From an archaeon (GTDB taxonomy: Archaea > Iainarchaeota > Iainarchaeia > Iainarchaeales > Iainarchaeaceae), in assembly GCA_035289485.1 (NCBI GenBank), contig DATDXA010000031.1:27807-91806 (forward strand): 64,000 nucleotides of DNA, written 5' to 3'. The position numbers were made by a program, and so were the translations under genes. Under the pieces are notes generated by a model, which had not been told where the DNA came from, made no database searches, and saw only the letters and a list, made by a program, of their open reading frames with translations. Numbering within the stretch: the first letter of the stretch is position 1; each line of letters starts with the position of its first letter. This document shows, piece after piece, positions 9,799-36,139 of this stretch.

Positions 9799-10065
9799 TT
9801 ATCTCTGTTCAGAGCCTATTTCCCTTTCATCAACTATGAAGACATCGCTAACCGCTGTTACTGCGGAGTACGGCACTTCAATTATCCTGTCCTTGGCGTC
9901 AATTTTCTTTGCCACTTTAGATTCCCTGTCGACTTCGACAAGAAGGTGCTCTATTGTGCCTGTCTGCTCATCAACGAGAAGGTCAACTAGCTTTCCAACT
10001 TCGTCTCCTCTGTTGGTAATGACCCTTTTTGTTGCAAGCTGCCTTGCTATTGTGTATTTGTACAT
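9799..10065 (-). CDS. PRC-barrel domain protein
   Basis: 88 aa, with GDEVGKLVDLLVDEQTGTIEHLLV typical of PRC-barrel proteins. Confidence 0.65.
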   Translation of the reverse strand: MYKYTIARQLATKRVITNRGDEVGKLVDLLVDEQTGTIEHLLVEVDRESKVAKKIDAKDRIIEVPYSAVTAVSDVFIVDEREIGSEQR

Positions 10066-10269
10066 AGTAGTCTCCCCTTTTTCTTCATCAAAAAGAAAAT
10101 TTCTATATTAGGAAAGTCTAACTTATTTAAATATTTATGGGGGAAGAGGCCCGAATACATAACTCTTTTCGCGGATTTGAGACGGTTTACGATTGTTTAA
10201 TGGGGTTAGATGGCTAATGCCTGGCTCCTTCATGCCTGCTTGAAAAGGAGACAAAAACGTGTTATGTAG

Positions 10270-11505
10270 ATGATATTTTTGAGGGTTAATACCTTCCCAA
10301 TCCTTTATAAAAATCGTCGAAGCCCAATGTGCTCTATGCCAATTATACTTGAAGCGGTTGAGCACAAGGAAGAGGGCTGCGGCTGCCACAGCCACGAAGC
10401 TGCCGAGACCATCGAGGCTCCTGTTGCTGTTGAAGAATTCGACGGCGCGGAGATGAACTATGAGCACTCGGAAAAAGACGAGACAAAGTTCCTCTCAAAA
10501 AAGCAGGTAGAAAAACTAAAGAATTCAAGGTACGCAATGGTCGGCTCTCACTCTGCGGTCCAGATATGCTCATGGAACAAGAAAGCAATAAAGCAGGAAG
10601 GCGTTTGCTACAAGCAAAAATTCTACGGGATAGAATGCGCAAACTGCGCCCAGATGTCGCCTTCCGTTCTCTGGTGCAATGAAAATTGCGTTTTCTGCTG
10701 GCGCCCGATGGAGTGGATGCGCAACGTAAACCTTGAAGATGTTGAAGTTGATGCCCCTGCAAAGATAATTTCAGGGACAATTGTGCAGCGCCAAAAGCTG
10801 CTCTCAGGTTTTGGCGGCCTCACTTCCATAAACAAAGAGAGGTATGAGAAAAGCAAAATGCCGACGCACTGGGCGGTTTCGCTCTCTGGCGAACCAACGC
10901 TCTACCCTAAAATCTGCGAACTCATTGCAGAAATCAAAAGCCTGCCCGAAACAAAAAGCGTGTTCCTTGTAACAAACGCGCAGAAGACCGATGTGTTTGA
11001 GAAAATGGCCACAAACAAAAAATACCTTCCAACGCAGCTTTACGTTTCACTAGATGCTCCAAATGAGGAGATGTTCAAAAAAATCAACCGCTCCGTTCTG
11101 CAGGATGGCTGGCAGAGGCTTGCGAATTCAATGCGCGTAATTTCAAATTTAGAAACACGAAAGGTCGTGCGCGTGACTCTTATGAAAAGCATCAACGATG
11201 ATGAGGCAAACCTGCAGGCATGGTCTGATTTGGTCTGGACAATGAAGCCGGAATTTTTGGAAATAAAATCCTACATGCACATCGGCGATTCACGCTCGCG
11301 CCTCTCACGTGACAACATGCCAACTTTTGATGAGATTAAAGCATGGTCAGAAAAATTCGCCGCAATTTCAGGATATGTTTGCAAGGATTTCTCGCGCCCG
11401 AGCAGGATAATGCTCCTTGTGCGCCCTGATTTGAAGGAAAAGAACACCAAGCTCGAATTCGCAAGAAAGGAAATGGGGCTTAACGGCGATGGAATTGACT
11501 TTTAG
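10270..11505 (+). CDS. taw1: tRNA 4-demethylwyosine synthase (TYW1/Taw1), radical SAM
   Basis: CYKQKFYGIECANCAQMSPSVLWCNENCVFCWRP radical-SAM and second cluster, and SLSGEPTLYP. True start probably at an internal Met (MCSMP or MNYEH). Has an N-terminal extension containing CGCH. Confidence 0.8.
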   Translation: MIFLRVNTFPILYKNRRSPMCSMPIILEAVEHKEEGCGCHSHEAAETIEAPVAVEEFDGAEMNYEHSEKDETKFLSKKQVEKLKNSRYAMVGSHSAVQICSWNKKAIKQEGVCYKQKFYGIECANCAQMSPSVLWCNENCVFCWRPMEWMRNVNLEDVEVDAPAKIISGTIVQRQKLLSGFGGLTSINKERYEKSKMPTHWAVSLSGEPTLYPKICELIAEIKSLPETKSVFLVTNAQKTDVFEKMATNKKYLPTQLYVSLDAPNEEMFKKINRSVLQDGWQRLANSMRVISNLETRKVVRVTLMKSINDDEANLQAWSDLVWTMKPEFLEIKSYMHIGDSRSRLSRDNMPTFDEIKAWSEKFAAISGYVCKDFSRPSRIMLLVRPDLKEKNTKLEFARKEMGLNGDGIDF

Positions 11506-13788: not shown

Positions 13789-16700
13789 ATGGGAAAAAAA
13801 CTCCTGCCTTTGCTGCTGCTCTTTTCGCTTGTTTTTGCAGGCTGCCTTGCCAACCCGACAACCGAAGACCGCCTCTCCTGCCTCGAACTCACATCATATG
13901 CTTTCACATCAATCCCCCAATGCAAAACGCAGGATGAGTGCTTTTCGCGCGCACAGGCTGCTCTTGGTTTTGATGAATCCTCCCTTAACTCCATTACCCG
14001 TGAAGAGCTCCTAGGCGCAAAAAACCATCTCGCGCGCTCATGGCTCTTTCTCAATAACGCAAGGGCGAATCTCAAAAACATCCATGCCTTATGCTACTCC
14101 GAGAGCTATTTGGGAATTCCAATGGAAGTGAATGAGCTCAATTCAAATCTCACAACCGTTGGAAAAGAAATAGATTTCTTCAACAAATCCGCGGCGCGCG
14201 CAATCAACACAGAGCTCACTTCAATGGAACTAGATGACATCAATGTGATTGCGCAAGAGCCGCTCTTTGATGATTACTCAGTTCTAAACCAGAATGTGGT
14301 GGATTTTTCGGCGCACAATTCCTCCGGTAAAACCTACGCCTCACGGTTCATCCGCGAGGCCGAAAAATTCAACACAATCGCGCAAACACTAAGCCTTCAG
14401 GGCACACTGCAGCAAACAAGCCTTTTTGGAATAGTTTCAGAAAACAAATCCGCGGCAAAAGAACTGCTAGCCGAATCATCAAAAAAGAGGGATTTTCCGC
14501 TGCAAATAATCGCGCCGGTTTTTTATGGCATTTCAGATTTCCTGCGTGATTTTTTTGCGCTCGGAGGCTCTCTGCAGTCCCTAAAAGCCCTGCCCTCATT
14601 TGATGTGCTATCCTCAATCAACAGCCTCGTGGGAAGCGACAACTCCGCCGCATCTGAATTCTTCTCAGTATTCAAGTCAGATGCGGAGCACAGGAATTTA
14701 CTGAACCTGAAAAACTCCGGCAAGATGCAGCGGGCAAGTTCAGAACTGCCATTGCTTGAATCCGGGCTTGAAATGATTTCCGCTTCCCTCAAATCAATTT
14801 ACACGCAGGATTACCTTGATGCCGGCCTTGCATCCTCGGGTTTTGAGGAATTTCCCGTATCCGAACCGGATCCGCGCAATTTCTATTCTGCTTATTCTGC
14901 AAGGATAAATTTCGTAAAATCGAGGCTGCGCTCCCTTGAGCAGGCGGAGTTTCTTGGCACAATAACCCTTGGCGCAAAAACAACAGAACTTATCGAAATA
15001 CTAGAAGAGAATTCGCGCATTGCAAATGAAATGGATTATTTCACGAGGCTCTCATCCGGCGCCCTGTCCGCATGCGCAGAAAGCCTCTTGCTCGCAGAAT
15101 CAAAAATTTCCTCAAAAGAATTTGAATCGGGAGATGCCGCCGTACTCTCACTCAAGGCAAAGCTGGCTTCCGAGATTTCGGATTTCAAAGCGCAAAACCG
15201 ACTCTCAGGGTGCATTGCAGCGCTTGCGGATTTTCGCAGGCTCGAAGAATACATTAAAAGCGAAAACCCAAGTGCAAAAGCAGCCGAACTGATTGCAGCG
15301 TGCATAATTGATGCGCAGCAGCTCGGCCCTTTTGCGCAATCAGCGGAACTTTCCGCGCAGCTAAATGCCCTAAACAAAATAGTGCCGCCATATGCTAACC
15401 CCGAACTTGTCCTATCTTCCTGCACAAGCTTAAAACAGAGGCTTCTAACCTCCGCGCAATCCTCAGCCGAATCCGCTTCCGCAACACAAAAATTTTCCAC
15501 ACTCTCAAATTACGTCTCAATTCTTGCGCAATTTGCAGCGAAATTTCCCTCTCTTCCATCGGAGCCCGCGGCAAAAAAACTCCAGAATTCTTTCACGGAA
15601 ATTTCCTCAAATTTTACTGATTCCGGCATCAAGAGCGAATCAATTGCGCAAGCGTCCGAACTTGGCGCAAAGCTCGAAAGCCTCAATGCGGATGCAGAGC
15701 AAACACTCAAATCACTTGCCTCAGAGGCGGTGGAAAAATATTCCAAAATAGATTACCCGCAAAACCCGAACCCTCTTCTAATCCCTTCTGGTGTGCTTTC
15801 TGCTTCACAATCCTTTGCGAGAATTTCGTTTGAAAATATCCCCCGCGAAATTCCCCTGTCCGTTATTTCCGCAATAAGCCTGAATTCGCGGGATGCCGCC
15901 GCTGTTTTCTCCACAGGAAATATCGGCTTTGCAGCCCAGGGCGAGAAAACATCCCTGCGTTTTACCGGCCTTCTGCCCGGCATAAATTCAATAGTGCTTG
16001 ATCTCAATGCATTCGCCCAAAGCGCGGGAGCAAAAAATCCCGAAATTCCGCTAAGTGCCGGCGCGGAAAAAATAATCTCTGAAAAAGACTCCATCCTGAA
16101 AAACGCCGCACAATTTTCAGGCGACAAAAAACCCGAGATTGATTTTTTCTCCCAAAAAATAGATTTCCTTGCAAAGCAGGGGCTTTTGGATGATGCGGCA
16201 AAGGCGCTTGCGCTGCTTAAGGAAACTTATTCGGGCGCGGAAGTGCAGGCACAGGAGGCGCTAAAAAAGAAAGCCGATTCATACGCCGAGAAATTCGGGC
16301 AGCTTGCAGCCCTGCGCACCTCCCTTGCAAAGAATTCGAAAGATTTGCTTGATAATTTTTCCTCGCTTGGCGCAGCAATTCCCGCAGAAATTGCCGCATA
16401 TATCCCGATTACAGGGCAGCGCGCAAAAGAACTCTCTGTGCTTGCAGCAAAACAAATTCCGCAGGAAAAGGAATTTGCAGCCCTTATGCAAAAAGGCGAT
16501 TTTGCAGGCGCCATATCGCTTGCCGAAAAAACAGGGCTTGATGAACAAATAACGCTGCTTGATTCTGCTAACAGCGAATCGGAAAATGCCATTGAAAAAA
16601 TCAGGCAGAACGCAATCTCCTCATACGAACTCGCTTCAGAAAAAAGCAAATCTTCTCCTGCGAGTGCCGCTGCCGAGCAGCTTCTCTTAAAATCCAGGGA

Positions 16701-16953
16701 TTCTTTGGGGAAAAAATCCTACCTAAGCTCCCTGCTAAATTCCTCAAATGCGCTTGCTGTTCTCCCTTCGGGCAACCAAAACCTTTTCGGGGGTTTTGAA
16801 ATTCCGCTTCCGGTTTACCCGCTCGCTCTTGTGGTTGTCGCTGCAGGAATTTATGCGTGGAAAAAGAAATCCGTTCAAAAGCCCGCAGAGCCTTCAAGAG
16901 TAAAAAAAGCAAATGAAGAAAATCAGGAAGATGCAGAGCCGCTTCTTTTCTAA
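13789..16953 (+). CDS. Large (1054 aa) exported Ala/Ser/Leu-rich protein with N-terminal signal peptide plus lipobox-like Cys and a C-terminal transmembrane anchor
   Basis: MGKKLLPLLLLFSLVFAGC signal/lipobox, low-complexity predicted-helical body, and C-terminal LALVVVAAGIYAWKKK followed by an acidic tail. Confidence 0.7.
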   Translation: MGKKLLPLLLLFSLVFAGCLANPTTEDRLSCLELTSYAFTSIPQCKTQDECFSRAQAALGFDESSLNSITREELLGAKNHLARSWLFLNNARANLKNIHALCYSESYLGIPMEVNELNSNLTTVGKEIDFFNKSAARAINTELTSMELDDINVIAQEPLFDDYSVLNQNVVDFSAHNSSGKTYASRFIREAEKFNTIAQTLSLQGTLQQTSLFGIVSENKSAAKELLAESSKKRDFPLQIIAPVFYGISDFLRDFFALGGSLQSLKALPSFDVLSSINSLVGSDNSAASEFFSVFKSDAEHRNLLNLKNSGKMQRASSELPLLESGLEMISASLKSIYTQDYLDAGLASSGFEEFPVSEPDPRNFYSAYSARINFVKSRLRSLEQAEFLGTITLGAKTTELIEILEENSRIANEMDYFTRLSSGALSACAESLLLAESKISSKEFESGDAAVLSLKAKLASEISDFKAQNRLSGCIAALADFRRLEEYIKSENPSAKAAELIAACIIDAQQLGPFAQSAELSAQLNALNKIVPPYANPELVLSSCTSLKQRLLTSAQSSAESASATQKFSTLSNYVSILAQFAAKFPSLPSEPAAKKLQNSFTEISSNFTDSGIKSESIAQASELGAKLESLNADAEQTLKSLASEAVEKYSKIDYPQNPNPLLIPSGVLSASQSFARISFENIPREIPLSVISAISLNSRDAAAVFSTGNIGFAAQGEKTSLRFTGLLPGINSIVLDLNAFAQSAGAKNPEIPLSAGAEKIISEKDSILKNAAQFSGDKKPEIDFFSQKIDFLAKQGLLDDAAKALALLKETYSGAEVQAQEALKKKADSYAEKFGQLAALRTSLAKNSKDLLDNFSSLGAAIPAEIAAYIPITGQRAKELSVLAAKQIPQEKEFAALMQKGDFAGAISLAEKTGLDEQITLLDSANSESENAIEKIRQNAISSYELASEKSKSSPASAAAEQLLLKSRDSLGKKSYLSSLLNSSNALAVLPSGNQNLFGGFEIPLPVYPLALVVVAAGIYAWKKKSVQKPAEPSRVKKANEENQEDAEPLLF

Positions 16954-16954
16954 A

Positions 16955-18172
16955 TCATTTCTTCAAATAAAAGTAGGCGAAAACACCAAGCGAAATCAGC
17001 GCAAGTATTGCAGAGCCGATTATTTCAATCCCTATTCCCTTCTGCAATGTCACAGTTGTGGTTTCGCACTCAAGCAGGCGCGATTCATACTCTGCCGCGC
17101 ACCCAAGTTCGTAATTGCCAGCGCTCAGGCCTTTCACGCTGAAAACAACATCCTGCGAAGCATTTGGTTCAAGCGTGCCAATTGATTTGGATTTTTCCCC
17201 GGTAACTTCAAGGCCCGTAAGAGGCGTTATTGCTACGCTAGAAACATTTTCCTTGCTTATATTTTGCACCGTGATTTTGAGCGGAATGCTCCCCCCAGTG
17301 TAGAGCTTGTCATTATCCAGCGCGACTTTTACCGAAATCTTGTGCGGCGGCTCAACCGCCCCAAGATCTGGCCTGTTTGTGAGCATCCTCTCTTCCTCAC
17401 CAAAAACATTTGTAAATGCCATGACCGAGGGGAGCAGCGTGAAGGGCACTGCCTTGTGCGCTACAATAAAATATGAAATGCTCAGTTCCCCAGGCTTTGC
17501 GCAGTTTCCAAGCGCATCCCGCTCAGAGCACTTTGGCACTGTTCCGCTCTTTGAAGTGATTCCGTCAAGCACGCTAACTTCAGGAGCCGCCCTTTCAAGC
17601 TCGGCTTTTCTATAGCTTAGTGAAACCGTTGCATCTTCAGTTCCAAAATTTCTTGCAACTGAAGTGATTTTGAACGGCACTCCCACATATGGCGCGTAAG
17701 TGTCAAGGTCCATTTTGAAGCCTTTCTCCTGCGGGAAATAAGCTCCCGTATAAACCCCGAATTTCGAATCCGCAAAAACCGTTATCGCATTCACGGTGTA
17801 AGAAGTCTGGCCGCAAACCGTGACGCTGTTATTTTCCTTCAAAAGCCCCTGGGGCACCGGGATTCTCACAACCCCGTTCTGGAAATCGGCGTATGTAAGC
17901 TCTGCAATCTTTTGCGTGTTGAATAAAACATTGATTTTCGCGTTGCTCTTTGGCACGGGCGCGAGATTTGCATTGAGTGAAATTATCTGAAACATCTCTG
18001 CGTTGATGTCGCCTGAGTAAATAAAATCAAAATTTGTGCACTTGTGCACATTAACCCCGCTTATGTAGAAATCCTGGTAGCCTTGGTCGTGGAAAGTGAA
18101 TTCCTGCACAACCGCTGCTGAGGTTATGTAGCTGAAAAATACTAGTGCAAATAAAATAAGGAATTTTTTCAT
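16955..18172 (-). CDS. Exported hypothetical protein with signal peptide and C-terminal TM anchor (Thr/Val/Ser/Gly-rich)
   Basis: MKKFLILFALVFFSYITSAAV signal and C-terminal IIGSAILALISLGVFAYFYLKK. Its stop codon is 1 nt from the stop of the convergent 1054-aa gene. Confidence 0.65.
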   Translation of the reverse strand: MKKFLILFALVFFSYITSAAVVQEFTFHDQGYQDFYISGVNVHKCTNFDFIYSGDINAEMFQIISLNANLAPVPKSNAKINVLFNTQKIAELTYADFQNGVVRIPVPQGLLKENNSVTVCGQTSYTVNAITVFADSKFGVYTGAYFPQEKGFKMDLDTYAPYVGVPFKITSVARNFGTEDATVSLSYRKAELERAAPEVSVLDGITSKSGTVPKCSERDALGNCAKPGELSISYFIVAHKAVPFTLLPSVMAFTNVFGEEERMLTNRPDLGAVEPPHKISVKVALDNDKLYTGGSIPLKITVQNISKENVSSVAITPLTGLEVTGEKSKSIGTLEPNASQDVVFSVKGLSAGNYELGCAAEYESRLLECETTTVTLQKGIGIEIIGSAILALISLGVFAYFYLKK

Positions 18173-18176
18173 TCGG

Positions 18177-18704
18177 TCACTTCTTTCTTTTAGTTTTCCT
18201 GGAAAGTTCCTTCAAAGGCTTTGCGCGCAGGAACAGTTCAGTAATTATTGAATCCGTTGTTTCTTTAATAGTTTTCCTGTTCTCAAGCTCGATGATTTTT
18301 GCCTTTGCATAGTTGCGAGCGGCATGCTTTTTGCAGTAATCTATCCCTTCGCAGAACACATTGTCCTGCACCTTTTCATCCCTGTATCCGCGCAGTTCAA
18401 GCCTTGCCCCTAATCTCTCAGGGTTCAGGCGCAGCAGCACGCAAAAATCAAACTTGCCCTTTATTTCGCAGAGCATATGCCCCTCAACAATGATGTTTTT
18501 TTCCTTTGCAAGGAGTTTATTTAGCCTCGATTCTAGTTTTTCAATCGGCACCACGAGTTCATTTTCCGCGGCGTCAAACTCCCCGATTCCTTCGCGCAGC
18601 GAGAATTCTTTCTCATTGAGGACCTTATGCCCGAGCTCCTGCCCAAGCTTTTTTGCAATGGTGGTTTTGCCAACCCCCGGGGTTCCTGTTATGCAGATTC
18701 GCAT
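18177..18704 (-). CDS. Fap7/hCINAP-like putative adenylate kinase (P-loop NTPase)
   Basis: MRICITGTPGVGKTT Walker A at the extreme N-terminus and about 175 aa, as in archaeal Fap7-type kinases. Confidence 0.7.
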   Translation of the reverse strand: MRICITGTPGVGKTTIAKKLGQELGHKVLNEKEFSLREGIGEFDAAENELVVPIEKLESRLNKLLAKEKNIIVEGHMLCEIKGKFDFCVLLRLNPERLGARLELRGYRDEKVQDNVFCEGIDYCKKHAARNYAKAKIIELENRKTIKETTDSIITELFLRAKPLKELSRKTKRKK

Positions 18705-19124
18705 CTGGAAATTGGGTCAGGATGGTAATAAAGCATTTCCGAATCGGCCATTAAATCAGAAAGCTGAAAATAGAAAAAGCGGCGGAAAGAGGAGAAGGGG
18801 TGAACAATGAGATTAGCTTACAGAGGCTTAATAGCATAAGTCTTCCTTAGGCCAATAGCTTGGTCAGTTAACCTCTCCCCGCCTTGTTCTAGGCACAGAA
18901 GCAATTTGGCGGCATTGGACTGCTGTTCGGTCTTTAGCCCACTACCACTTACAGATGACATTAAATGTTCCATGCCCAAAACATCATCTCTAATGATTTA
19001 AGTAGTATAAATACCTTTCTGTACAACGGAGCAAGTATAAGGCTCCGTTTACCTAAAGGAGTCATTTTGTTCAGTTATTTGGAAAAATAAGCTTTATAGT
19101 GCCTTTTTTCTTATGTATATTCAC

Positions 19125-19295
19125 TTTTTTTTCGCGCTAAAAAAATTTTTGAAAAAACGCGAAAATTCGGTTTATGTATATGGGTGTTTCTGTGAAAAAT
19201 TTCGCGCTTAATCGCCAAAATGGTTTTTACGGCTTTTCGCGTTTTTCCGTGTCCAAATTTTCGCGCGAATGATGTTTTCATAACGCAAAAAATGG
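19125..19295. repeat. AT-rich intergenic repeat block: palindrome TTTTCGCG-N21-CGCGAAAA plus direct copies of AAATTT(T)CGCGC...CAAAA(A)TGGTTT
   Basis: Read directly: ttttcgcgctaaaaaaatttttgaaaaaacgcgaaaa at 19129-19165. aaatttcgcgc at about 19196 and aaattttcgcgcg at about 19254. ccaaaatggttttt and caaaaaatggttt about 60 nt apart. Confidence 0.6.
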
Positions 19296-19406
19296 TTTAG
19301 AAAAAGAGTTTTAGCAAAACAAATACTTTCTTAGTATATTTTGGGCTGTTCCGGAAGCCTGCTTCCCATTATGGCAAGTAAATGATAGTGGAACTGAATT
19401 ATCCAT

Positions 19407-19733
19407 TCAAATATTTTTCATCAATTCCTTTTTCACTTTCTCAAAGAACTGCGGGGTTACTTTGCCAATCTCCTTGAGGAAAAGTTCCTTTTCCATCGAG
19501 GCAATGGTATCCGTTCTTACAAAGCTTTTTGCCCTGAGTTCCCCTGAAAAATCCTTTTCCGTCATTTCAAGCTCAAATTCTTTCATGGTTGCCTTGGTTG
19601 TCAGGGGGCAAGTCCAATAGAATGCGTGCGCGTTGTTGAAATGTTCATTTGAGATTATCAGTGCCGGCCTTATTTTGTAATCAATTTGGTTTGTGAAGGG
19701 AAACCTTGCCAAAGCCACGGTTAATTGGTTCAT
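19407..19733 (-). CDS. PemK/MazF-family toxin (mRNA interferase)
   Basis: DYKIRPALIISNEHFNNAHAFYWTCPLTTK matches the MazF/PemK core (RP.l..s......v.P.T). Confidence 0.7.
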   Translation of the reverse strand: MNQLTVALARFPFTNQIDYKIRPALIISNEHFNNAHAFYWTCPLTTKATMKEFELEMTEKDFSGELRAKSFVRTDTIASMEKELFLKEIGKVTPQFFEKVKKELMKNI

Positions 19734-19739
19734 TGAAAA

Positions 19740-19955
19740 TCACAGGTATGTTTTCCAGATTTCGTCCTCATCGTTGCCCCATATTTTTTCAAGCGCCCTT
19801 TGCGAAAGTGCCGCTTTGGCATACTTGTTCGGGCCCATTTTTTCCCGCAGTATTTCCCTTATGACCTCACTTCTGCTCTTGTAGAGGCCTGATTTTACCC
19901 TGCCGTCTATCCATTTTTCCATTTCATCCGTGACATCCGCGCTTAGTGTTGTCAT
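19740..19955 (-). CDS. Ribbon-helix-helix (CopG/ParD-like) antitoxin paired with the PemK toxin
   Basis: VKSGLYKSRSEVIREILRE RHH signature. 71 aa, immediately upstream of the toxin. Confidence 0.65.
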   Translation of the reverse strand: MTTLSADVTDEMEKWIDGRVKSGLYKSRSEVIREILREKMGPNKYAKAALSQRALEKIWGNDEDEIWKTYL

Positions 19956-20156
19956 ACATCACATATAGCGGGCTATATTTTTAAAGGTTATGAAATTGGC
20001 AAAGCAGGGCAATCTTGCACAAAACTATTTACTAAAAAATCTTAGTAAAACAAAGAATCTTTTGGTATAATTTAAGCGCCATTATGGCACACATTATGCC
20101 TTGGCAACAACTGCGTTGTTGATTCAATTTCCCGCCGATTTTGGGCTGTCTTTTAT

Positions 20157-20441
20157 TTGTTTTGCAGCCAGTTCCTTCAAATGCTTCTAGAATTTTTCGC
20201 ATACCTAACGGGCCTATTTGGAATACTCATGGCTTTTGGCCATTTCTTCCAGGCAAACAGGATTTACAAAAACAAAAGCTCAAAGGATGTGAGCCTTGTC
20301 AATTACATAATTCTAATGGTCGGCTGCTGGGTGTGGCTCATTTATGGGATATTGAAGCAGGACTACCCGATAATGATAAGCTTTGGGATTTCAGTTGTAG
20401 GGACAACTGCGGTTGTTGCGCTCAAGTTTGTTTACAAGTAG
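20157..20441 (+). CDS. SemiSWEET (MtN3/PQ-loop) sugar transporter, 3-TM half unit
   Basis: 94 aa with three TM helices. FQANRIYKNKSSKDVSL matches the PQ-loop motif (PQxxKxxKxKSxxGVS). Confidence 0.7.
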   Translation: MFCSQFLQMLLEFFAYLTGLFGILMAFGHFFQANRIYKNKSSKDVSLVNYIILMVGCWVWLIYGILKQDYPIMISFGISVVGTTAVVALKFVYK

Positions 20442-20567
20442 TTGGGAACTTAGTTGCCATTGTATTGGTACTTTGAATAAATACTTAACTCTGTTGGGGG
20501 TACTTATAATTGTTTAGGGGTTGAGGGGCCTAGATACTATTAGTTGTTTTTGAAAAATATGTGGCTT

Positions 20568-21098
20568 TTATTCTTTGAAAAAATGCACTAACCAAAGCGC
20601 AAACGAACCTATCAAATAGAAGTTTAGAAGATCAAACAAGAGCCTAATCACTGTAAGAGAATAAGGGTATGATACCTCAATTCCTGATGGAATTGGTGGC
20701 AATAAAACATCCGTTATTGGAAGGTATACAAGCGTAGAAAAAGCATACCATATCCCATAACCGGATAAGGTAAGTATTATGTTGATTTTATTTGGGTACA
20801 AACACTCCGTGAAAGACTTTGCCATAGATATATCATCACTCCAATTCTTTTTATCTCTTACTTTATCTAAAAACCAAAAGGAAAAGCAAGATATTAGATA
20901 AAATGTGGCAATCTCAGTCACAAGTCTCATAATCCAATAAATATGTGACCCTAAATGCACCCTAGCTACAAGATTTTGGGCAAAAATGTTTTCTGACGGA
21001 GTTAGCAGGATAGTATCTAATAAATAAAATAGCCCGTAGGCAAAAATAACAAAAAGAATTTTTTTCTCATTTGGTTTCAAAAAATAAAATGGCTTCAT
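20568..21098 (-). CDS. Hypothetical polytopic membrane protein (AT-rich gene)
   Basis: 176 aa, at least four hydrophobic segments, no recognised family. Local GC is clearly lower than the flanks. Confidence 0.45.
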   Translation of the reverse strand: MKPFYFLKPNEKKILFVIFAYGLFYLLDTILLTPSENIFAQNLVARVHLGSHIYWIMRLVTEIATFYLISCFSFWFLDKVRDKKNWSDDISMAKSFTECLYPNKINIILTLSGYGIWYAFSTLVYLPITDVLLPPIPSGIEVSYPYSLTVIRLLFDLLNFYLIGSFALWLVHFFKE

Positions 21099-21251
21099 CT
21101 ATAGTTCTATCTTTTCCAGAGTTAATATTATTTAGCAATTCTCTCTTAGTTCTCTCTTCCCCCCGGCTGTGAGGGAAAAGTTGCCACACCCGAGCCATTT
21201 TCTAAAGTGCACCTATATTTCTTGAAGGGCATAATATAATTTCCGTAAAAC

Positions 21252-21279
21252 GTTTCAATTCAGCCAATTCAATTGAAAC
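21252..21279. promoter_or_regulatory. Perfect 9-bp inverted repeat GTTTCAATT-N10-AATTGAAAC; candidate terminator or operator hairpin
   Basis: Read directly. Lies about 75 nt downstream of the aCPSF1 stop and about 155 nt upstream of the membrane-protein gene start. Confidence 0.4.
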
Positions 21280-21353
21280 ATCGCGACTTCACTCACCGGT
21301 TCCGCCCATGCGAATATATTGCGCCCCGACAGGGCTCAAATGAATAAATAGTA

Positions 21354-24300
21354 TTACTTCAACCTTACCGAATCCAAATTCCTTATCGCCTGCGAGCTTA
21401 TCCCGAACTTTTGCGAAAAGTGCTTTGCAAGCTCAACACATTTCTCGGCTTCGCCGTGATCTGTAAGTATTCTCTTCGGCTTGGGCTTTAGGTTTCTCAC
21501 ATACGCAGAGAGCTGCATGCGATCAGAGTGCCCTGAAAACCCATCAAGCCTTTCAATCCTAAGATTCACATTCAGTTTTCTTGTCCTTCCGGCATTATCC
21601 GTAATCGGCAGGCTCTTTACTCCGCTTAGAACCTTTCTTCCAAGCGAGCCTTCACCCTGGTAACCTACAAAAGCAAGTGTATTGACCGGGTTCTCCGCGA
21701 GGCGGTAGAAGTACTGAACGCTTGCTCCGCCAGTTAGCATTCCGCTAGAAGCCAGAATTATTGCTTTCCCGTTCTGTGCAATTGCGTCCCTGTCCTCCGG
21801 CTTTGCAACCTGGAAAATATCTGAAGTGAAGGGCGAATCGTTTTGCAAAACCCTCTTCTGAACTCCCGTGCGCAAATACTCAGGATATGCCGTGTGTATT
21901 GCCGAGCTCTCCTTGGTCATTCCATCAATATACACTTTGACTTCAGGGTCAATTAGGCCTTTTCTGTAATAATTCTCAATTACAAGCTGAATCTCCTGCG
22001 CCCTTCCGACAGCAAACACGGGCACCAAAATAGAGCCGCCCTGATTCACAGTTTCTTGTATGATTTTCAAAAACCTCGCTTCCGTGTCCTCACGCGCGGT
22101 TTGAATGTCATCCTTTCCGCCGTATGTGCTCTCAACAATAAGGGTTTCAAGCCTTGGATAATTTATGTCAACATTATTGAAGAGCCTGCTAAAGCCGTAC
22201 TTGATGTCTGCGCTGTAAACCAAGTTGTGCGCCCCCTCTCCAATATGAAGGTGCACTGATGCGCTTCCGAGCACATGTGCCGCATTATGGAATGTAAGCC
22301 TCATATCCGGCGCAATATCAGTAACTTCGCGGTAATCGCGTGTGATGCAGTACTTGAGCATTTCCTTAACATCGCGCTCAGAATAAGGCGCTTCCTTATT
22401 CTCCTTTGCCATGATGTCAAGATAGTCAAAGAGAAGCAGCGCGCCAAGATCACGTGTCGGCTCGGTGTTGTGAAGGCAAATTGGCGCTTCCCCGCCAACA
22501 AAATTCTGGTCATCTTCAACCGAAAAGTCGTAGACAAACCCATTAGTTGGCTCTACCATATTAATCTCTGTAATCGGGAGGAATGCCAGGTCGGTTTCTG
22601 AAAACTCCATTAACTTTTCCCTGGTTTCCTGCGCCACCAAAGAAGTGCCATTGGCACTTTTTACCCAATTCTTATTTAGAAGTTCTGCAAGCCTTTGCTT
22701 GGTGACATGCTTTCTATTTTTCAGCCTGTGGTAAAACCACTCTTGCCCAAAACCCACTTCTTTTAAGGGCAAAATATCGCACCCTTTCTTATCTAATCTT
22801 CTTTTTCCAAAGAACTCGGATAAATTTATTGTGATGCTGTAAACCGTATTTTTTGTTTTTGCTTTCGGCATCGCAATAGTAAATTTGCTGTATGTAAAGC
22901 CGAGTTGCGAGCATAAATATGACAAATCCGAGGCCAAATCCTTGCTGACAGTTGTTGCGGTAGCTGTCTTGTTCAGTTGGTTTATTGTGCCATCACCTTC
23001 AAAATAGGCTTCCAGAAAAGCTAACTTTAGTTCGTCCCCGACGTTGAATACTATTTCTGGTATTCTTTTACTTGTTGCTTTTTTATAGCCTGGGAAAAAT
23101 TCTTTCTTGAATACGTCCAACAAATTTTTAGAATTTATTGCCACCCTAAGCCTTGTTTCCTGGCTTATGCTATCTTTTGCCTCAATGTCGAACACTTTTC
23201 TAACCGCATTTTTAAGTTCCTCTACAATTCCCCTGTCTTTGAGCCCGAAGGTGAGCCTTATCCCCCTTTTCTCAAAATGACCTTCTGCAGTAAAATATCC
23301 TAAAATTTTCATGAGGTCTGTGTTCACGCTGATTTTGCCCGGGAGCTTGATTTTGGATCCTTTGCCATTGTATTGCTCCAAGCCAATCGTTTCAATTTTT
23401 TCATTTCCTGACGGGAGTTTGTGCGGGGCAATAAGATAGTCCCCAATCTTTAATTCGCTGACTTTGGCATCAGAGATTTTTCCATTTTTGAGGACAAATA
23501 CGCTGTGGGATCCCGTTACCTTTACCTTTCTTTTGTTCCTTGTCACAATTTCAAATATTTTGCCTTCAACTTTGTGCCTTATTACTTTTTTGACTTTCTT
23601 AAAATTAATTTTCTTGTCTTTTGAGAAAGCAGGCACGTATAACTCCTGATTTGGCTGTGCCGCCATGTATTCGTTTTCAGGATAAAAATCCACATTCTTC
23701 GAGTTGCCGATGATTTTATCTATCACTGCGCCAATTTTTTCTATTTTTATGCGGCCATTTTCCTTTATCATAACCGGTTCTGCATAGTCCACACTCATGT
23801 ACACCGGGCCGCGGTAACCCAGTTTGAACAGGTAAGGCAAAAATCCTATGTGGTCCATGTGCGTGTGGCTAATCACAACCGCATCAAGCTCATTTATCGG
23901 GAAGCGAATCGCGTCAAGATAGGGAAATGCGTCCTCAGAGTTTTGCGCCGCAACATTGATTCCACAGTCCATTAATATTTTTGTCCTGCGGGTTTCAAGC
24001 ATTATGCAGCTTCTTCCAACCTGCCTAAATCCTCCAAGAGGAGTTAGCCTAATCCAGCTCGGGCCCGGCTTTTCAGAATAAATTTTCTTTGCAGTTTCCT
24101 GCAAAATCTTTTTGCGCTCGGAAGCATATTTCACAAGGTGGTGCCTAATCCCGCGCAATATTTCACTTGGCGAAGTCGGGCTTCTCAAAATTTTAGGGGT
24201 CCATCCGGTTTGCAGTATAATTTCTTTTGTTGTCATTCCGCCCTTGCCAATTACAAGGCCGGGCTTAAGCGCTTCAATTACAACTTCACTAAAAGCTTCC

Positions 24301-24581
24301 ATGAACTGAATGTCCGCGATTTTGGCGTCCTCAGGGACAATTTTCATTATCTTTTCGCGCGCCTCTTTTTCCTCAAGCAGCAGAGATTTGTCCGCGCGGA
24401 TATTCACTTTCTTCTTTAGCTGGTGCGCAATCGCGCGCACATAATCCTCGTTCTCGTGGAAAGCGCGGGGATTTTTTGTATAAATCGCAATCTCAGGCCC
24501 TTCAAGGTCGACTGATGAGACTTCGGCTTCCTTTGGCACGATTGCCGCAACAGTTTCCTTTACTTCCTTTAGATATTCCAT
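21354..24581 (-). CDS. aCPSF1 / FttA (KH-KH, metallo-beta-lactamase, beta-CASP, RMMBL ribonuclease; archaeal transcription termination factor) interrupted by an intein
   Basis: N-terminal KH domains (VIGKGGMTTKEI), HTHMDH zinc motif, and GPVYM then intein then TEPTRDL, which aligns with ...GPVYCTRPTRDL... of intein-free aCPSF1. C-terminal beta-CASP/RMMBL region. 1075 aa = 259 + 446 + 370. Confidence 0.9.
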   Translation of the reverse strand: MEYLKEVKETVAAIVPKEAEVSSVDLEGPEIAIYTKNPRAFHENEDYVRAIAHQLKKKVNIRADKSLLLEEKEAREKIMKIVPEDAKIADIQFMEAFSEVVIEALKPGLVIGKGGMTTKEIILQTGWTPKILRSPTSPSEILRGIRHHLVKYASERKKILQETAKKIYSEKPGPSWIRLTPLGGFRQVGRSCIMLETRRTKILMDCGINVAAQNSEDAFPYLDAIRFPINELDAVVISHTHMDHIGFLPYLFKLGYRGPVYMSVDYAEPVMIKENGRIKIEKIGAVIDKIIGNSKNVDFYPENEYMAAQPNQELYVPAFSKDKKINFKKVKKVIRHKVEGKIFEIVTRNKRKVKVTGSHSVFVLKNGKISDAKVSELKIGDYLIAPHKLPSGNEKIETIGLEQYNGKGSKIKLPGKISVNTDLMKILGYFTAEGHFEKRGIRLTFGLKDRGIVEELKNAVRKVFDIEAKDSISQETRLRVAINSKNLLDVFKKEFFPGYKKATSKRIPEIVFNVGDELKLAFLEAYFEGDGTINQLNKTATATTVSKDLASDLSYLCSQLGFTYSKFTIAMPKAKTKNTVYSITINLSEFFGKRRLDKKGCDILPLKEVGFGQEWFYHRLKNRKHVTKQRLAELLNKNWVKSANGTSLVAQETREKLMEFSETDLAFLPITEINMVEPTNGFVYDFSVEDDQNFVGGEAPICLHNTEPTRDLGALLLFDYLDIMAKENKEAPYSERDVKEMLKYCITRDYREVTDIAPDMRLTFHNAAHVLGSASVHLHIGEGAHNLVYSADIKYGFSRLFNNVDINYPRLETLIVESTYGGKDDIQTAREDTEARFLKIIQETVNQGGSILVPVFAVGRAQEIQLVIENYYRKGLIDPEVKVYIDGMTKESSAIHTAYPEYLRTGVQKRVLQNDSPFTSDIFQVAKPEDRDAIAQNGKAIILASSGMLTGGASVQYFYRLAENPVNTLAFVGYQGEGSLGRKVLSGVKSLPITDNAGRTRKLNVNLRIERLDGFSGHSDRMQLSAYVRNLKPKPKRILTDHGEAEKCVELAKHFSQKFGISSQAIRNLDSVRLK
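22467..23804 (-). mobile_element. Intein (446 aa, Ser1...His-Asn, +1 Thr) with LAGLIDADG homing-endonuclease domain, inserted in aCPSF1
   Basis: Begins SVDYAEPVMI and ends ICLHN followed by T. LAGLIDADG motifs ILGYFTAEGHF and LKLAFLEAYFEGDGTI. AT-richer than the exteins. Confidence 0.8.
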
Positions 24582-33281: not shown

Positions 33282-35618
33282 TTACGCCGCCTTCTCAGCA
33301 ATTTCCTTCTCAATAAGCGACCTTATCTTCTCCGCATCGAACCCGAGCTTAATGAGCCTTGTCTGGCCCTTGATTCCTTTCCCGGAATTTGTCGAGTGTA
33401 TGAGCCCGTACATTTCAAGTTCGGAGATGTATTCGCGGTACCAGCGCGCGCTCACCGTGGTTTCCTTGAATTTTTTTGAAATGCGGCAGTACTCATCGTA
33501 AATTTCCCCAGAGAACAAAACCCCTTCCTCGCTCTCGCCGGTTATTTTTTGCATCGGTTTTTTGTTCAGCGCAAGCGCCGCAATCGCATACAAAACAAGC
33601 TGCTGCTGCTCAGGAAGAGTAGAAACCATATTGAAAATTATCTCCTCTTCTACGGTTTTCTTCGCCTTTTTAACTTCGGCATCCGTAACTTTGCCAAGCG
33701 ATTTCTTATCGGCAATCTCACCTGCTCGCAGCATGAGCATTACCGCAGTGCGCGCATCCCCAGATTCCTGCGCTGCCACTGCTGCCGCGAGATGTATTGC
33801 GGATTCTTCAATGGTATTTGGCCGAAAAGCCGATTGCACGCGTTGCTTTATGATTTCCGTGAGCTCCTGCGCATTATATGGCGGGAACACAAGCTCGTGC
33901 TCGCAGAGGCTGCTTTTGGTGCGCGGGTCAAGCCTGTCTTTAAACATCACATTGTTTGAAATGCCAATTATTGATATGCCGCCATCCTTTATTTCATCGT
34001 TCGCGCGCGTGAGGCCATAAATTAATTCATCCAGGTCCTTTACTTTATCAACTTCATCCAGTACGAGTATCAGTTGCTTTCCCCTGCGCGCGTAATCAAC
34101 CAGCTTTTCGTAAATGAAAGCCGCGGAAAAGCCCAAAAAATTCTCCTCAGGGTACAATTCCTTTACAATCTTTATGAGGATGCGGTATTTGCTGTTGTGA
34201 TTTCTGCAGTTGACGTAATTTCCCTCAATTGGCATGTTCTTTGAGATTGCAAAATCAAGAAGCTGCTGCATCACATGCTTTGTAACCGAAGTTTTCCCGG
34301 TATTATGGGAAATAATTCCATTTGCGATAAAATTATGGTTTTTTGGAACCGTCAAATCATACACAAAATCTTCAAATGCCTCTTCAATCTTTGCAATTTT
34401 TGAGGCGGAAAAGCCCGTTTCATTAATTGGCATTGTTTTGACATACTTTGTAATCATTATCCGCAGCCTTTCTTGTTTTACAGTGCTATAAAACCCTATT
34501 TTATTGTAAAATTTGAATATGTTTTCCTGTCCCTGTATATATAGTCGGTAGGCGTCAAATATTTTTCCGTTTAATTTGGCTGGCTTGCTTCTGACTTTGC
34601 ATCTGATTCCTTCCTGGTATAAAATATATGCGACCTGCTGCAGGAATTTTTTTGAATTCGAGTAGTACTCTATCTGAAATGTTTGCTGGCTTACAGTGCC
34701 ATCGCCGGAAAACAAAGCCTTCAAAAACTCCCTTTGGATTGTGGGTGAGGCTTGTAAAATCGATTCGGGAACTTCAATAATCCGGCTTTTCTCTCCAAAA
34801 GGGACTCCAAGTGAGTTCAGAGTTTGGCACGCGTTTTGTGAAATCATGTTGACGTGTGCACACCTGTCCTTTGGATAAATTATTGACGGGGTTCCGCCAA
34901 AGACTTTTGCCAAATCCTCCTGCACTTTTTTAAGCAAATTAGCATCAATGCTGAAATATCTATATCTTTGCCTGTCCGCATTATAGTAATAACCTCTGCC
35001 ATCCTTTGCTTTTTTCTGTTTTCTATTAAGACTTCCGTCGCTTAAAGTAAAACCCAGCAATCTGGCCAGTGCAAGTGGCATTTCATGGTCATTTAAGGAT
35101 GGCAAATCATATCCAAGTGCAAGTTCATCAGCTATCTTCAATTGATTGGACTTTTTCCACTCCATATCCGAAGTTAAAAGAGGATGGTCCCGTGTAACAG
35201 TCAACTCATAGCCGTTTTCAAGTGTTATTTTAAGCAATTTGTCATTATTCTTGTATTTCAGGAAGACAAAATCAGACCACTCATATTTTTTTATTTTCTT
35301 GTTGAATGTGGCCACTAAATCAGTTAGCATATCAACGTCTCTGATTTTTTTCCACCCATTACTCGTGTAAACAAGGCTGTCGCCTGCAATGCAACCCGTT
35401 TTTCCGTAAATGAAAACATTGTCGGATTTCTTGCCGCGGATTGATTCTGAGAGGATTGAGGAGATTTGTTCTATATACTTGTCGCGGAAAGGGAGTATTT
35501 TAGGAGTATAATGCGTGGTTATGATGTTTCTGTCCAAAAAAATGGTTTCGCGCGCGAACTCGCGCTCAAAAATGTTCACACGTTCAGAACTAACCGTAGA
35601 TACAGAAGTATTTTGCAA
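33282..35618 (-). CDS. Orc1/Cdc6 replication initiator interrupted by an intein in the Walker A P-loop. TTG start as tracked.
   Basis: Extein reads ...NVFIYGKTG then intein then TGKTSVTKHV (P-loop GKTGTGKTS once spliced). LVLDEVD Walker B and a C-terminal winged helix. 778 aa = 75 + 364 + 339. Confidence 0.9.
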   Translation of the reverse strand: MQNTSVSTVSSERVNIFEREFARETIFLDRNIITTHYTPKILPFRDKYIEQISSILSESIRGKKSDNVFIYGKTGCIAGDSLVYTSNGWKKIRDVDMLTDLVATFNKKIKKYEWSDFVFLKYKNNDKLLKITLENGYELTVTRDHPLLTSDMEWKKSNQLKIADELALGYDLPSLNDHEMPLALARLLGFTLSDGSLNRKQKKAKDGRGYYYNADRQRYRYFSIDANLLKKVQEDLAKVFGGTPSIIYPKDRCAHVNMISQNACQTLNSLGVPFGEKSRIIEVPESILQASPTIQREFLKALFSGDGTVSQQTFQIEYYSNSKKFLQQVAYILYQEGIRCKVRSKPAKLNGKIFDAYRLYIQGQENIFKFYNKIGFYSTVKQERLRIMITKYVKTMPINETGFSASKIAKIEEAFEDFVYDLTVPKNHNFIANGIISHNTGKTSVTKHVMQQLLDFAISKNMPIEGNYVNCRNHNSKYRILIKIVKELYPEENFLGFSAAFIYEKLVDYARRGKQLILVLDEVDKVKDLDELIYGLTRANDEIKDGGISIIGISNNVMFKDRLDPRTKSSLCEHELVFPPYNAQELTEIIKQRVQSAFRPNTIEESAIHLAAAVAAQESGDARTAVMLMLRAGEIADKKSLGKVTDAEVKKAKKTVEEEIIFNMVSTLPEQQQLVLYAIAALALNKKPMQKITGESEEGVLFSGEIYDEYCRISKKFKETTVSARWYREYISELEMYGLIHSTNSGKGIKGQTRLIKLGFDAEKIRSLIEKEIAEKAA
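34302..35393 (-). mobile_element. Intein (364 aa, Cys1...His-Asn, +1 Thr) with LAGLIDADG homing-endonuclease domain, inserted in Orc1/Cdc6
   Basis: Starts CIAGDSLVYTSNG and ends NGIISHN followed by T. LAGLIDADG motifs LARLLGFTLSDGSL and FLKALFSGDGTV. AT-rich relative to exteins. Confidence 0.8.
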
Positions 35619-35674
35619 AATTTTAATCCCCCGAACTCACTTGGACTGAACTGGATTTAAGGGAATTGAGTTGT

Positions 35675-35691
35675 GGAAGTGAACCACTTCC
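35675..35691. promoter_or_regulatory. Palindrome GGAAGTG-AAC-CACTTCC, 57 nt upstream of orc1/cdc6; ORB-like candidate Orc1 binding site
   Basis: Read directly. Contains the 11-mer GTGGAAGTGAA, which is also present upstream of the polD operon at 43348-43358. Confidence 0.4.
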
Positions 35692-35735
35692 GATACTGCG
35701 TGTTTGCTTTCCTAATTTTGCCTTGTAATTTTTCC

Positions 35736-36017
35736 TTACGCAGGGCTTTCCGGTTTTTGCATTTGCATTTTTTTATTCCTATTATTGGCTGCAATCAATC
35801 TCTGGTGCGCATCAACTGCGGCCGCATAATTCTTTCTGAGCGGCTCCAATTCGGCTTCCGGACGCTCGTCAGCTGCACGTAGCGCCCTTAGCGCCCGATT
35901 CTTGGCTTCTTTTAGCGCCGCAAGGTCGGCAGGCGGCTTTGCAGGCTCAATATGCGGATGCACAACTGTCTCAGCCGGGCTTAGAGGCCCTTTTCTTGGG
36001 AATAATCGCATTCTCAT
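35736..36017 (-). CDS. Hypothetical small protein (uncertain)
   Basis: 93 aa, Ala/Arg-rich, GC-rich frame, no motif. Confidence 0.25.
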   Translation of the reverse strand: MRMRLFPRKGPLSPAETVVHPHIEPAKPPADLAALKEAKNRALRALRAADERPEAELEPLRKNYAAAVDAHQRLIAANNRNKKMQMQKPESPA

Positions 36018-36139
36018 GTCATCAATTGCCGTTTATCTGATTTAAATCCTTTTTGTGTTATGTATTTTCTGAGAACTTGCCTCATGTCAGAAATCAAATT
36101 CAAGGTTTTTGGCGCGGGGAAAGCCTTAAAATATAGTTA

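Follow-up and report, generated by a model that had tools for sequence, protein, structure and literature searches.

EarA binds TACATA-type sites, of which archaellum promoters have one to four, placed at a set distance ahead of the B recognition element (BRE) (PMC10665913, PMC5512572). Uridine tracts, on the other hand, constitute the archaeal terminator signal and are used together with aCPSF1/FttA (10.1101/843821). Replication origins are represented near the lineage treated here by the skew-defined origin of a Diapherotrite, which abuts cdc6 and has strain variation close by (PMC5905446). This work compares these systems with a gap at positions 18705 to 19406 of a 64,000-nucleotide (nt) stretch of DNA from a DPANN archaeon of the Iainarchaeia, or Diapherotrites (contig DATDXA010000031.1, assembly GCA_035289485.1); the whole stretch is referred to here as the window. 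Judged from sequence comparison, the gap is a deeply conserved, class-wide control region plus an overlooked small gene. Its parts are of known kinds (upstream boxes, a promoter, a small gene, and terminators) but are combined in a form that has not been described before. We consider it probable that the gap unites a terminator/insulator with a phased upstream-box promoter array, which would drive a lineage-specific microprotein gene placed before the gene for a Fap7-type kinase.

Nearly all knowledge of DPANN archaea comes from metagenomes, and hardly any work exists on how they regulate their genes. The locus yields a 9-bp operator-like motif with unusually rigid 61- to 62-bp phasing throughout the class, a microprotein family encoded next to the ribosome-maturation kinase Fap7 almost without exception, and an mRNA helix with clear covariation. 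Standard annotation misses small genes that are hidden in gaps of this sort.

The gap lies between the PemK stop codon and the kinase start codon, measures 702 nt, and contains no open reading frame (ORF) of at least 60 amino acids (aa). A preliminary description, made from the letters of the window, had called it the longest intergenic stretch, AT rich, and noncoding. The first two points hold: it is the longest stretch of the window free of ORFs of ≥60 aa (the runner-up has 255 nt), its GC content is 0.379, falling to 0.314 at 19061 to 19350, compared to 0.458 for the whole window, and its AT-richness ranks second among the 300-nt stretches of the window. The third has to be given up, as a conserved 47-aa protein is encoded within the gap on the minus strand.

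A class-wide box array and its promoter

Eighty loci around the kinase gene were fetched, one genome per species, and 82 sequences were searched with a profile of the gap using nhmmer; conservation, phasing, and synteny were read directly from these sequences. The profile matched 64 of the 82 loci, every time just upstream of the kinase gene and co-oriented with it. The complete genome CP010424.1 is among the element-bearing loci, with the element at about 852,479 to 852,920. In the next species (86% kinase identity), blastn aligned 645 nt of the gap with 76.6% nucleotide identity, and identities of 75.9% and 68.6% were obtained for two further species. Matches spanning 19409 to 18714 occur only in close relatives. 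Several groundwater contigs of the same species encode an identical kinase protein. The closest database proteins carry the names Diapherotrites or Iainarchaeum, and the gene neighbourhood is archaeal (an intein-bearing FttA/aCPSF1, a proteasome subunit, Orc1/Cdc6, and PolD).

Read on the minus strand, the elements contain 146 short boxes with the consensus [TC][AC]TACATAA, all on one strand and numbering one to four per element. Successive boxes are 61 to 62 nt apart in 70 of 84 cases, and the distance from the last box to the BRE is either 36 to 37 nt (20 loci, three-box type) or 97 to 99 nt (27 loci, the two-box type to which the window belongs). The third box is intact in 29 of the 62 box-bearing elements, comprising 27 with three boxes and 2 with four. 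Three boxes are the ancestral state; the window retains two, and its third has decayed (Table 1). The two TATACATAA boxes and the BRE/TATA at 19006 to 19020 are conserved features that the preliminary description had missed. The BRE/TATA fits the TTTAWA elements located 25 to 35 nt before most start codons of this genome.

By analogy, EarA is the nearest described case, in the sense of a resemblance and not of membership. EarA sites and the boxes share a TACATA hexamer core, a copy number of one to four, and a fixed distance upstream of the BRE/TATA. Unlike EarA sites, the motif here has 9 nt, the last box ends 28 nt before the BRE (9 nt for EarA), the lineage is DPANN, and the target is the microprotein/Fap7 locus rather than an archaellum operon.

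Three further identities for the boxes were considered and rejected. A CRISPR-like array was suggested by the 61- to 62-nt period, but the shared repeat is only 9 to 16 nt (the criterion being ≥23 nt) and the "spacers" keep their A/T-run layout across species. If the boxes were TATA boxes of tandem promoters, transcripts would begin within T-runs; moreover, the TATA boxes of this genome are of the TTTAWA type. Boxes serving as terminator elements of neighbouring genes were discarded on account of their lack of orientation bias.

After every box there follows a segment composed of an A-run, a short G+C core, and a T-run (dyads A to C in Table 1). These segments have a mean z score of about −2 relative to shuffled sequence, compared to about 0 for control segments, and fold equally well in sense and antisense. 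Runs of ≥5 nt are in excess: per 190 nt there are 3.3 T-runs, versus 0.43 in shuffles, and 3.8 A-runs, versus 1.09 (about seven-fold and three-fold, respectively). The palindrome given in the preliminary description falls within dyad A. It is present as sequence, with TTTTCGCG at 19129 to 19136 facing CGCGAAAA at 19158 to 19165, but it folds no better than shuffles (z −1.3 and −0.9), and the class-wide property of dyad A is its T-run...A-run layout, not its CGCG cores. For dyad B, the mean z score across the family is −2.1 and locus-specific covariation is weak. The hairpin of dyad C, AACGGAGC-N9-GCTCCGTT, is present as described, has 8 bp, and folds better than shuffles (z −3.1 and −3.7); its stems are altered yet kept in many loci and are weak or absent in others. 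Because locus-specific covariation is small, the hairpin potential of the dyads may be a by-product of the A-run/T-run layout.

The direct repeats reported earlier likewise exist, at a spacing of 59 (17 nt, 82% identity) and, for AAAATGGTTT, which is present twice, at a spacing of 72. TTTCGCG occurs in five copies within 136 nt of the gap, compared to 38 across the 64 kb, and by a Poisson estimate the chance that a cluster like this arises somewhere in the window is about 1e-5. Unlike the conserved boxes, however, these repeats are species specific: relatives have one TTTCGCG copy each, and the multiple copies and the AAAATGGTTT repeats are confined to the window's species. The TTTCGCG copies are the local, species-specific G+C cores of A/T-rich dyads.

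The part of the element that contains boxes and dyads (19025 to 19200, minus strand) could alternatively be a structured noncoding RNA (ncRNA) with several hairpins and a single-stranded UAUACAUAA after each, in the manner of an H/ACA or protein-sponge RNA. Three hairpin-capable segments with a mean z score of about −2, a period of ∼61 nt that fits the size of a hairpin, an ACA inside each box, and some compensatory stem changes (e.g., ACGGAG/CTCCGT to ATGGAG/CTCCAT) are consistent with such an RNA. We nevertheless regard it as distinctly unlikely, given that both strands fold equally, locus-specific covariation is weak, there is no conserved promoter upstream of box 1, and neither K-turn nor pseudouridylation-pocket features were seen. 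In addition, box spacing is kept exactly, whereas loop and stem positions shift by 1 to 2 nt, so that a constraint on DNA distance fits better than an RNA fold. The preliminary description had suggested comparison to ncRNA models, and no known Rfam family accounts for the gap even at E values up to 10: Rfam 15 gave no match at gathering score in the window and seven related loci, and only chance-level matches (E ≥ 2.5) in 18600 to 19500. ARAGORN found no tRNA or tmRNA in the window.

Boxes also occur away from the element. The 1.27 Mb of fetched loci contain 191 further boxes, half of which lie in the 17.7% of sequence that is intergenic (∼4.7-fold enrichment). These have preferred distances from TATA elements, namely, 35 to 45 nt upstream and 20 to 29 nt downstream. 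At the promoter of a PRC-barrel gene, two TATACATAA-type boxes upstream of GGGAAACGTTTATAAA recur, and at the TYW1 gene TTTATAAA is followed after ∼25 nt by TTCTACATAA, placing the box in the expected transcription start region. The pattern suggests that the boxes are operator or activator sites of a DNA-binding regulator. An architectural DNA site is a competing interpretation, in which boxes and A/T tracts would serve to position a protein of the chromatin or nucleoid, be it histone multimers with ∼60 bp wrapped around them or a protein of segregation or bridging. The strictly kept 61- to 62-bp period, the strongly enriched A- and T-tracts at fixed positions, the lack of orientation bias among boxes elsewhere, and further arrays with 61- to 62-nt spacing in L061, L090, L091, and L045 would all agree with it. 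The array is locked to the BRE/TATA, however, the boxes elsewhere stand at preferred TATA distances, and an invariant, asymmetric 9-bp motif is more typical of a specific regulator; we therefore consider a purely architectural role quite unlikely.

Several of these outlying sites can be located. The PRC-barrel double box lies ∼6 kb downstream of the kinase gene in L061 (16188 to 16270), L071, L082, L084, L085, L087, L088, L090, and L091. The window has its PRC-barrel gene at 9799 to 10065 (minus strand), with TCTACATAA ∼200 nt upstream (region 9799 to 10270). Boxes at TYW1, which encodes a wyosine radical-SAM protein, were found in L035 (14890), L037 (18081), L040 (18437), L077 (19648), L093 (8047), and others; there, a T-run comes after the box, and next a C/U-rich tract, CCCCTCACTTCTC, which resembles TTCACCCCTTC and immediately precedes the ATG. 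In L061 (∼4560 to 4800) and L091 (∼4200 to 4430), a double box with 61 to 62 nt between its members precedes ∼200 nt of conserved sequence that lacks an ORF. This sequence, which has no Rfam match, may represent an rRNA leader or an RNA gene that has escaped recognition.

A microprotein gene and the helix at the end of its mRNA

A small ORF of 42 to 55 codons occupies the same place in about 50 loci and begins 45 to 60 nt after the start of the promoter 15-mer. A hidden Markov model (HMM) of the encoded protein has exactly one match in 75 of the 82 loci, all co-oriented and 100 to 350 nt before the kinase gene, and on contig L001 the gene caller had already called the ORF. Its coding nature can be observed directly in the alignments. 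Pairwise differences per codon position are 0.344, 0.304, and 0.473, the third position being the most variable; three conserved Leu columns draw on both codon families, with six codons in each column, and at Ser columns AGY alternates with TCN. The ORF is judged to be coding because its frame, its start and stop positions, and its amino acids rather than its nucleotides are conserved, and by this comparative evidence it is a real protein gene of a previously unrecognised family.

The consensus of the microprotein is A-x-x-L-x-x-x-L-x-x-G-G-x-x-L-x-D-x-x-x-A/G-F/L-x-K. The family has 45 members labelled "hypothetical" in a collection of 5.8 billion proteins, and an exhaustive profile search of 1.84 billion representatives returned only 26 matches, nearly all of 30 to 70 residues. 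No relatives were found in Pfam, NCBIfam-type models, or the PDB. The AlphaFold model consists of one helix (residues 9 to 25) and an extended tail, with a predicted local distance difference test (pLDDT) score of 71, and is too simple for a fold search.

Toward its 3′ end, the mRNA contains a long-range helix that is predicted in almost every locus, with arm sequences that differ. In relatives, the pairs of arms are GGCGGCAAGAG/CTCTTGCCGC, GGAGAGAAAC/GTTTCTCTCC, GGTGGGAA/TTCCCACC, and GGGGGAATAGTG/CACTATCCCC. On a MAFFT alignment of the 3′ part of the mRNA, RNAalifold returned only an invariant weak pairing, devoid of covariation, between TTCACCCCTTC and the Gly codons. The covarying 3′ arm does not fall into the same alignment columns in different loci, and duplex energies with own and foreign partners were therefore compared instead. 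Duplexes of the 5′ arm with its own 3′ region average −20.0 kcal/mol, versus −14.7 kcal/mol with the 3′ regions of loci having differing arms, and for 20 of 42 loci <5% of the foreign partners match the energy of the own duplex. The arms of the helix covary. The placement of TTCACCCCTTC differs between clades: it stands between the stop codon and the 3′ arm in the window's clade and just after the helix in another.

A second interpretation is a translation-coupled attenuator ahead of the gene for the Fap7-type kinase; Fap7 acts in the maturation of the 3′ end of small-subunit rRNA. The microprotein ORF would then be a leader: if it were untranslated, the helix and T-runs would end the transcript, whereas ribosomes that reach the stop codon would melt the helix and allow read-through into the Fap7 gene; UUCACCCCUU, which we take to resemble the 3′ end of 16S rRNA, may be a decoy for a small-subunit maturation factor. 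The location of the 5′ arm inside the ORF and of the 3′ arm at the stop codon or shortly past it, the covariation of the arms, and the T-runs that follow would suit this mechanism, as would the Fap7-type kinase downstream, the short stop-to-kinase distance (46 to 180 nt in 60 of 70 loci), and the two alternative partners of the G-run. Bacterial leader-peptide attenuators are similarly built, with a small ORF that forms the 5′ arm of a hairpin, a U-run next, and a position just upstream of a structural gene; the present case differs in its archaeal host, in the conservation of the peptide, and in a downstream gene that mostly possesses a separate promoter. To our knowledge, attenuation of this kind is not established in archaea. 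Conservation of the peptide at the sequence level favours a function of the protein over one of its translation alone. The kinase gene has its own TATA-like element, 15 to 45 nt upstream of its start, in 49 of 70 loci; in L009, the ORF and the kinase gene have a gene of 233 aa between them; and no regulatory codon run is evident. On balance, an attenuator appears rather unlikely.

The reading that we favour, a terminator/insulator and phased promoter array ahead of the microprotein gene, would operate as follows. Units of A/T-runs with short G+C cores place oligo-T on both strands and would act as consecutive uridine-tract terminators in both directions, most likely insulating the microprotein promoter from transcription arriving on either side; on the FttA side, its source in the window would be the inserted toxin-antitoxin genes. 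By analogy to EarA, we infer that the TATACATAA boxes are sites for a sequence-specific DNA-binding protein that controls TBP/TFB recruitment; because 61 to 62 bp corresponds to about six turns, the regulator would be placed on one helical face. The BRE/TATA would then drive a short mRNA for the 47-residue protein. This mRNA would end in the helix, formed by the Gly-Gly codons and a C/U-rich stretch past the stop codon, and termination would take place at the T-runs that follow. The Fap7-type kinase gene would start from its own TATA element and be mostly transcribed alone, and the microprotein may be functionally linked to Fap7. In common with archaeal uridine-tract terminators, which are often consecutive, the locus has several T-runs of ≥5 nt per strand, directly after the FttA gene and the microprotein ORF. 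Invariant boxes with exact phasing, however, are not described for such terminators, and while archaeal terminators are reported without a helix of this kind (10.1101/843821), that of the microprotein gene has a long, covarying one.

Several observations weigh against this interpretation. Boxes elsewhere lack orientation bias relative to neighbouring genes, and those of the array are 61 to 62 bp apart, whereas EarA sites are adjacent. In the upstream dyads, own and foreign arms differ by only 0.2 to 1.7 kcal/mol, like the control segment. The invariant TTCACCCCTTC, which presumably resembles the 3′ end of 16S rRNA, falls outside what the model explains. Finally, contigs of the same species break or diverge within 18704 to 18953, hinting at strain variation.

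Those contigs come from other samples, and all of them end or diverge inside the element: L008 at 18704 and L002 at 18789, whereas L003 and L004 end at 18825 and L007 ends at 18953. The divergent ends had no match among the other fetched sequences. The breaks represent either strain-level rearrangement or assembly chimeras.

A more speculative proposal, to which we attach little probability, joins these parts into one feedback device for small-subunit ribosome maturation. Here, the mRNA helix and the single-stranded UUCACCCCUU would mimic helix 45 and the 3′ tail of 16S rRNA and be read by Dim2, Nob1, or Fap7, or by ribosomes translating the ORF, which would set the output of microprotein and Fap7; the boxes would be operators through which one regulator, common to the lineage, acts on this locus as well as on the PRC-barrel and TYW1 genes.

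Table 1. Features of the gap and its flanks (window positions; a dot marks features given without a strand)
Feature	Position	Strand	Remarks
Upstream extension of element	19190..19409	-	Extra TTTCGCG/CGCGAAA copies and AAAATGGTTT repeats; kept only in near relatives L009, L012, L023, L019
Box 1, TATACATAA	19172..19180	-	Exact match; TACATAA invariant in 52/52 aligned loci
Dyad A, between boxes 1 and 2	19126..19165	.	T-run, CGCG, A/T spacer, CGCG, A-run; palindrome of the preliminary description
Box 2, TATACATAA	19111..19119	-	61 nt after box 1, 99 nt before BRE/TATA 15-mer; T.TACATA invariant in 52/52 loci
Dyad B, AAGAAAAAAGGC..GCTTATTTTTCC	19078..19110	.	A-run, short G+C core, T-run; −6.2 kcal/mol, z −1.7
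Ancestral third-box position	19049..19057	-	Degenerate here (TTTAGGTAA)
Dyad C, AACGGAGC-N9-GCTCCGTT	19025..19049	.	8-bp hairpin directly upstream of BRE
BRE/TATA of microprotein gene, AGAAAGGTATTTATA	19006..19020	-	TATA at 19006-19011; class-wide consensus CGAAAAGTATTTATA
Unannotated microprotein gene, 47 aa, MSSVSGSGLKTEQQSNAAKLLLCLEQGGERLTDQAIGLRKTYAIKPL	18818..18961	-	Conserved ORF, protein HMM, codon signatures
5′ arm of mRNA helix, GGCGGGGAGAGG	18872..18883	-	Gly-Gly-Glu-Arg codons of microprotein
Invariant TTCACCCCTTC	18794..18804	-	14 nt past microprotein stop codon
3′ arm of mRNA helix, CCTCTTTCCGCC	18781..18792	-	12-bp duplex with 5′ arm, −23.6 kcal/mol
T-runs, GCTTTTTCTATTTTC	18766..18780	-	After helix; putative transcript end of microprotein gene
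TATA-like TTTATTA	18726..18732	-	Putative kinase promoter (leaderless mRNA), ∼25-30 nt before kinase ATG
Fap7/AK6-type P-loop kinase gene	18177..18704	-	Pfam AAA_18; conserved downstream partner of element
Accessory insertion, FttA stop to element	19407..21353	.	∼1.9 kb; not part of element
PemK	19407..19733	-	Within insertion; PemK/MazF family
RHH	19740..19955	-	Within insertion; RHH/ParD-like
SemiSWEET	20181..20441	+	Within insertion
176-aa ORF	20568..21098	-	Within insertion; no family match, DNA of very low GC (0.30)

The question of a replication origin

The main proposal of the preliminary description was that the gap is a replication origin, in which case the boxes would be Orc1/Cdc6 recognition sites and the A/T tracts an unwinding element. 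The AT-richness of the region, its conserved, nonpalindromic, and regularly spaced repeats, and the presence of orc1/cdc6 and PolD genes within the same 64 kb recommend this idea, and beside cdc6 there is no large noncoding region that would be a better candidate. Strain variation also clusters at the element, as reported near the origin of a Diapherotrite (PMC5905446). That origin, however, is the sole one defined by skew in a Diapherotrite, and it abuts cdc6 (PMC5905446), whereas here the Cdc6 domains lie at 33282 to 35618 (minus strand), 14 kb away, and the genes flanking the element encode PemK and the Fap7-type kinase. All 146 boxes are direct and none is inverted, they stand at a fixed distance from a promoter, and they recur at other promoters. 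The genes on both sides of the element are on the minus strand, so that no switch of orientation takes place there.

No motif resembling an origin recognition box (ORB) was found in 18 to 20 kb or upstream of cdc6 with regular expressions of the TCCA..GGAA type. The window has no GC-skew switch, the skew being negative on both sides of the element; in 21 of 29 oriented related loci it is positive on both flanks, a weak test that covers 7-kb flanks only. The preliminary description had itself named conservation and synteny in all relatives, with no skew inflection, as evidence that would speak against its proposal, and this is what is seen in relatives for 18.7 to 19.4 kb. Like an archaeal oriC, then, the element is AT rich, has repeated short conserved motifs, is found throughout its lineage, and shares 64 kb with orc1/cdc6 and PolD; unlike one, it does not adjoin orc1/cdc6, has no ORB sequence, has direct instead of inverted repeats, is locked to a promoter, and shows no skew switch. 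We regard an origin at this site as very improbable. For origin prediction in general, the case advises caution: even where a gap bears repeats and has the highest AT content of its contig, it can be a promoter/terminator module instead of an origin.

An iteron-type control region had been offered as another possibility. A control region in which direct repeats are regularly spaced comes close to the findings, although the relevant repeats are not those that had been listed. Plasmid iterons typically have a period of ∼22 bp. As with iterons, the DNA of the element is AT rich and its direct repeats keep a regular helical phase, but it differs in lacking a rep gene, in occupying a chromosomal core locus, and in having a repeat of 9 to 12 nt with a period of 61 to 62 bp.

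Upstream of orc1/cdc6 itself (region 35619 to 36139), only a short spacer is present, with a perfect palindrome, GGAAGTGAACCACTTCC (35675 to 35691), and a C-run; no repeat family typical of origins was found in this region. Beyond the spacer lie a 93-aa ORF, a divergent SepF gene (36140 to 36544, plus strand), and the PolD genes (38023 to 42980, minus strand).

The kinase gene, the accessory insertion, and neighbouring genes

The best solved relatives of the kinase are Pyrococcus abyssi Fap7 (4cvn/4cw7, E = 3e-22) and human AK6/hCINAP; 3iij, 1rkb, and 5jzv are matched at ∼3e-14. The score against NCBIfam PRK03839 is below the cutoff of that model.

In 40 of 54 loci, the element begins at most 280 nt past the FttA stop codon, in the same orientation, and FttA - element - microprotein - Fap7 is therefore taken as the ancestral gene order. 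In the window, an accessory insertion separates FttA from the element (Table 1). The preliminary description had placed an RHH/PemK module directly beyond the gap, and the genes for an RHH/ParD-like protein and a PemK/MazF protein are confirmed. Other species carry different toxin-antitoxin modules at the FttA-side site, one of them with 3.3 kb of PIN/RHH modules, so that this site is an insertion hot spot. Because the element is syntenic while the insertions vary among relatives, 18.7 to 19.4 kb is core and 19.4 to 21.35 kb is accessory.

The same distinction bears on the earlier idea of an integration scar, according to which a mobile element would have integrated together with the toxin-antitoxin pair, the gap being its scar or end. 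As far as 19.4 to 21.35 kb is concerned, the idea is borne out, since that segment is absent from most relatives; for the gap, which is core and syntenic, it is not. Variation of the adjacent accessory segment and the breaks of same-species contigs at the element might be cited in its favour. The element is syntenic with or without an insertion, however, and is present in loci lacking any. Neither an integrase nor a tRNA gene is present, and a comparison to viral contigs gave 57 chance double-box matches, none of them similar to the element. A scar origin of the gap is scarcely tenable.

Two neighbouring genes are interrupted in similar ways. The FttA/aCPSF1 gene (21354 to 24581, minus strand) carries an intein with a LAGLIDADG homing-endonuclease domain, as does the Orc1/Cdc6 gene (33282 to 35618, minus strand); related species have an intein-less FttA of 632 aa. 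Downstream of the kinase gene, the stretch 13789 to 18172 encodes two proteins that are syntenic in relatives, one of 405 aa, for which a weak CARDB-like match was obtained, and a convergent one of 1054 aa, which has no family match.

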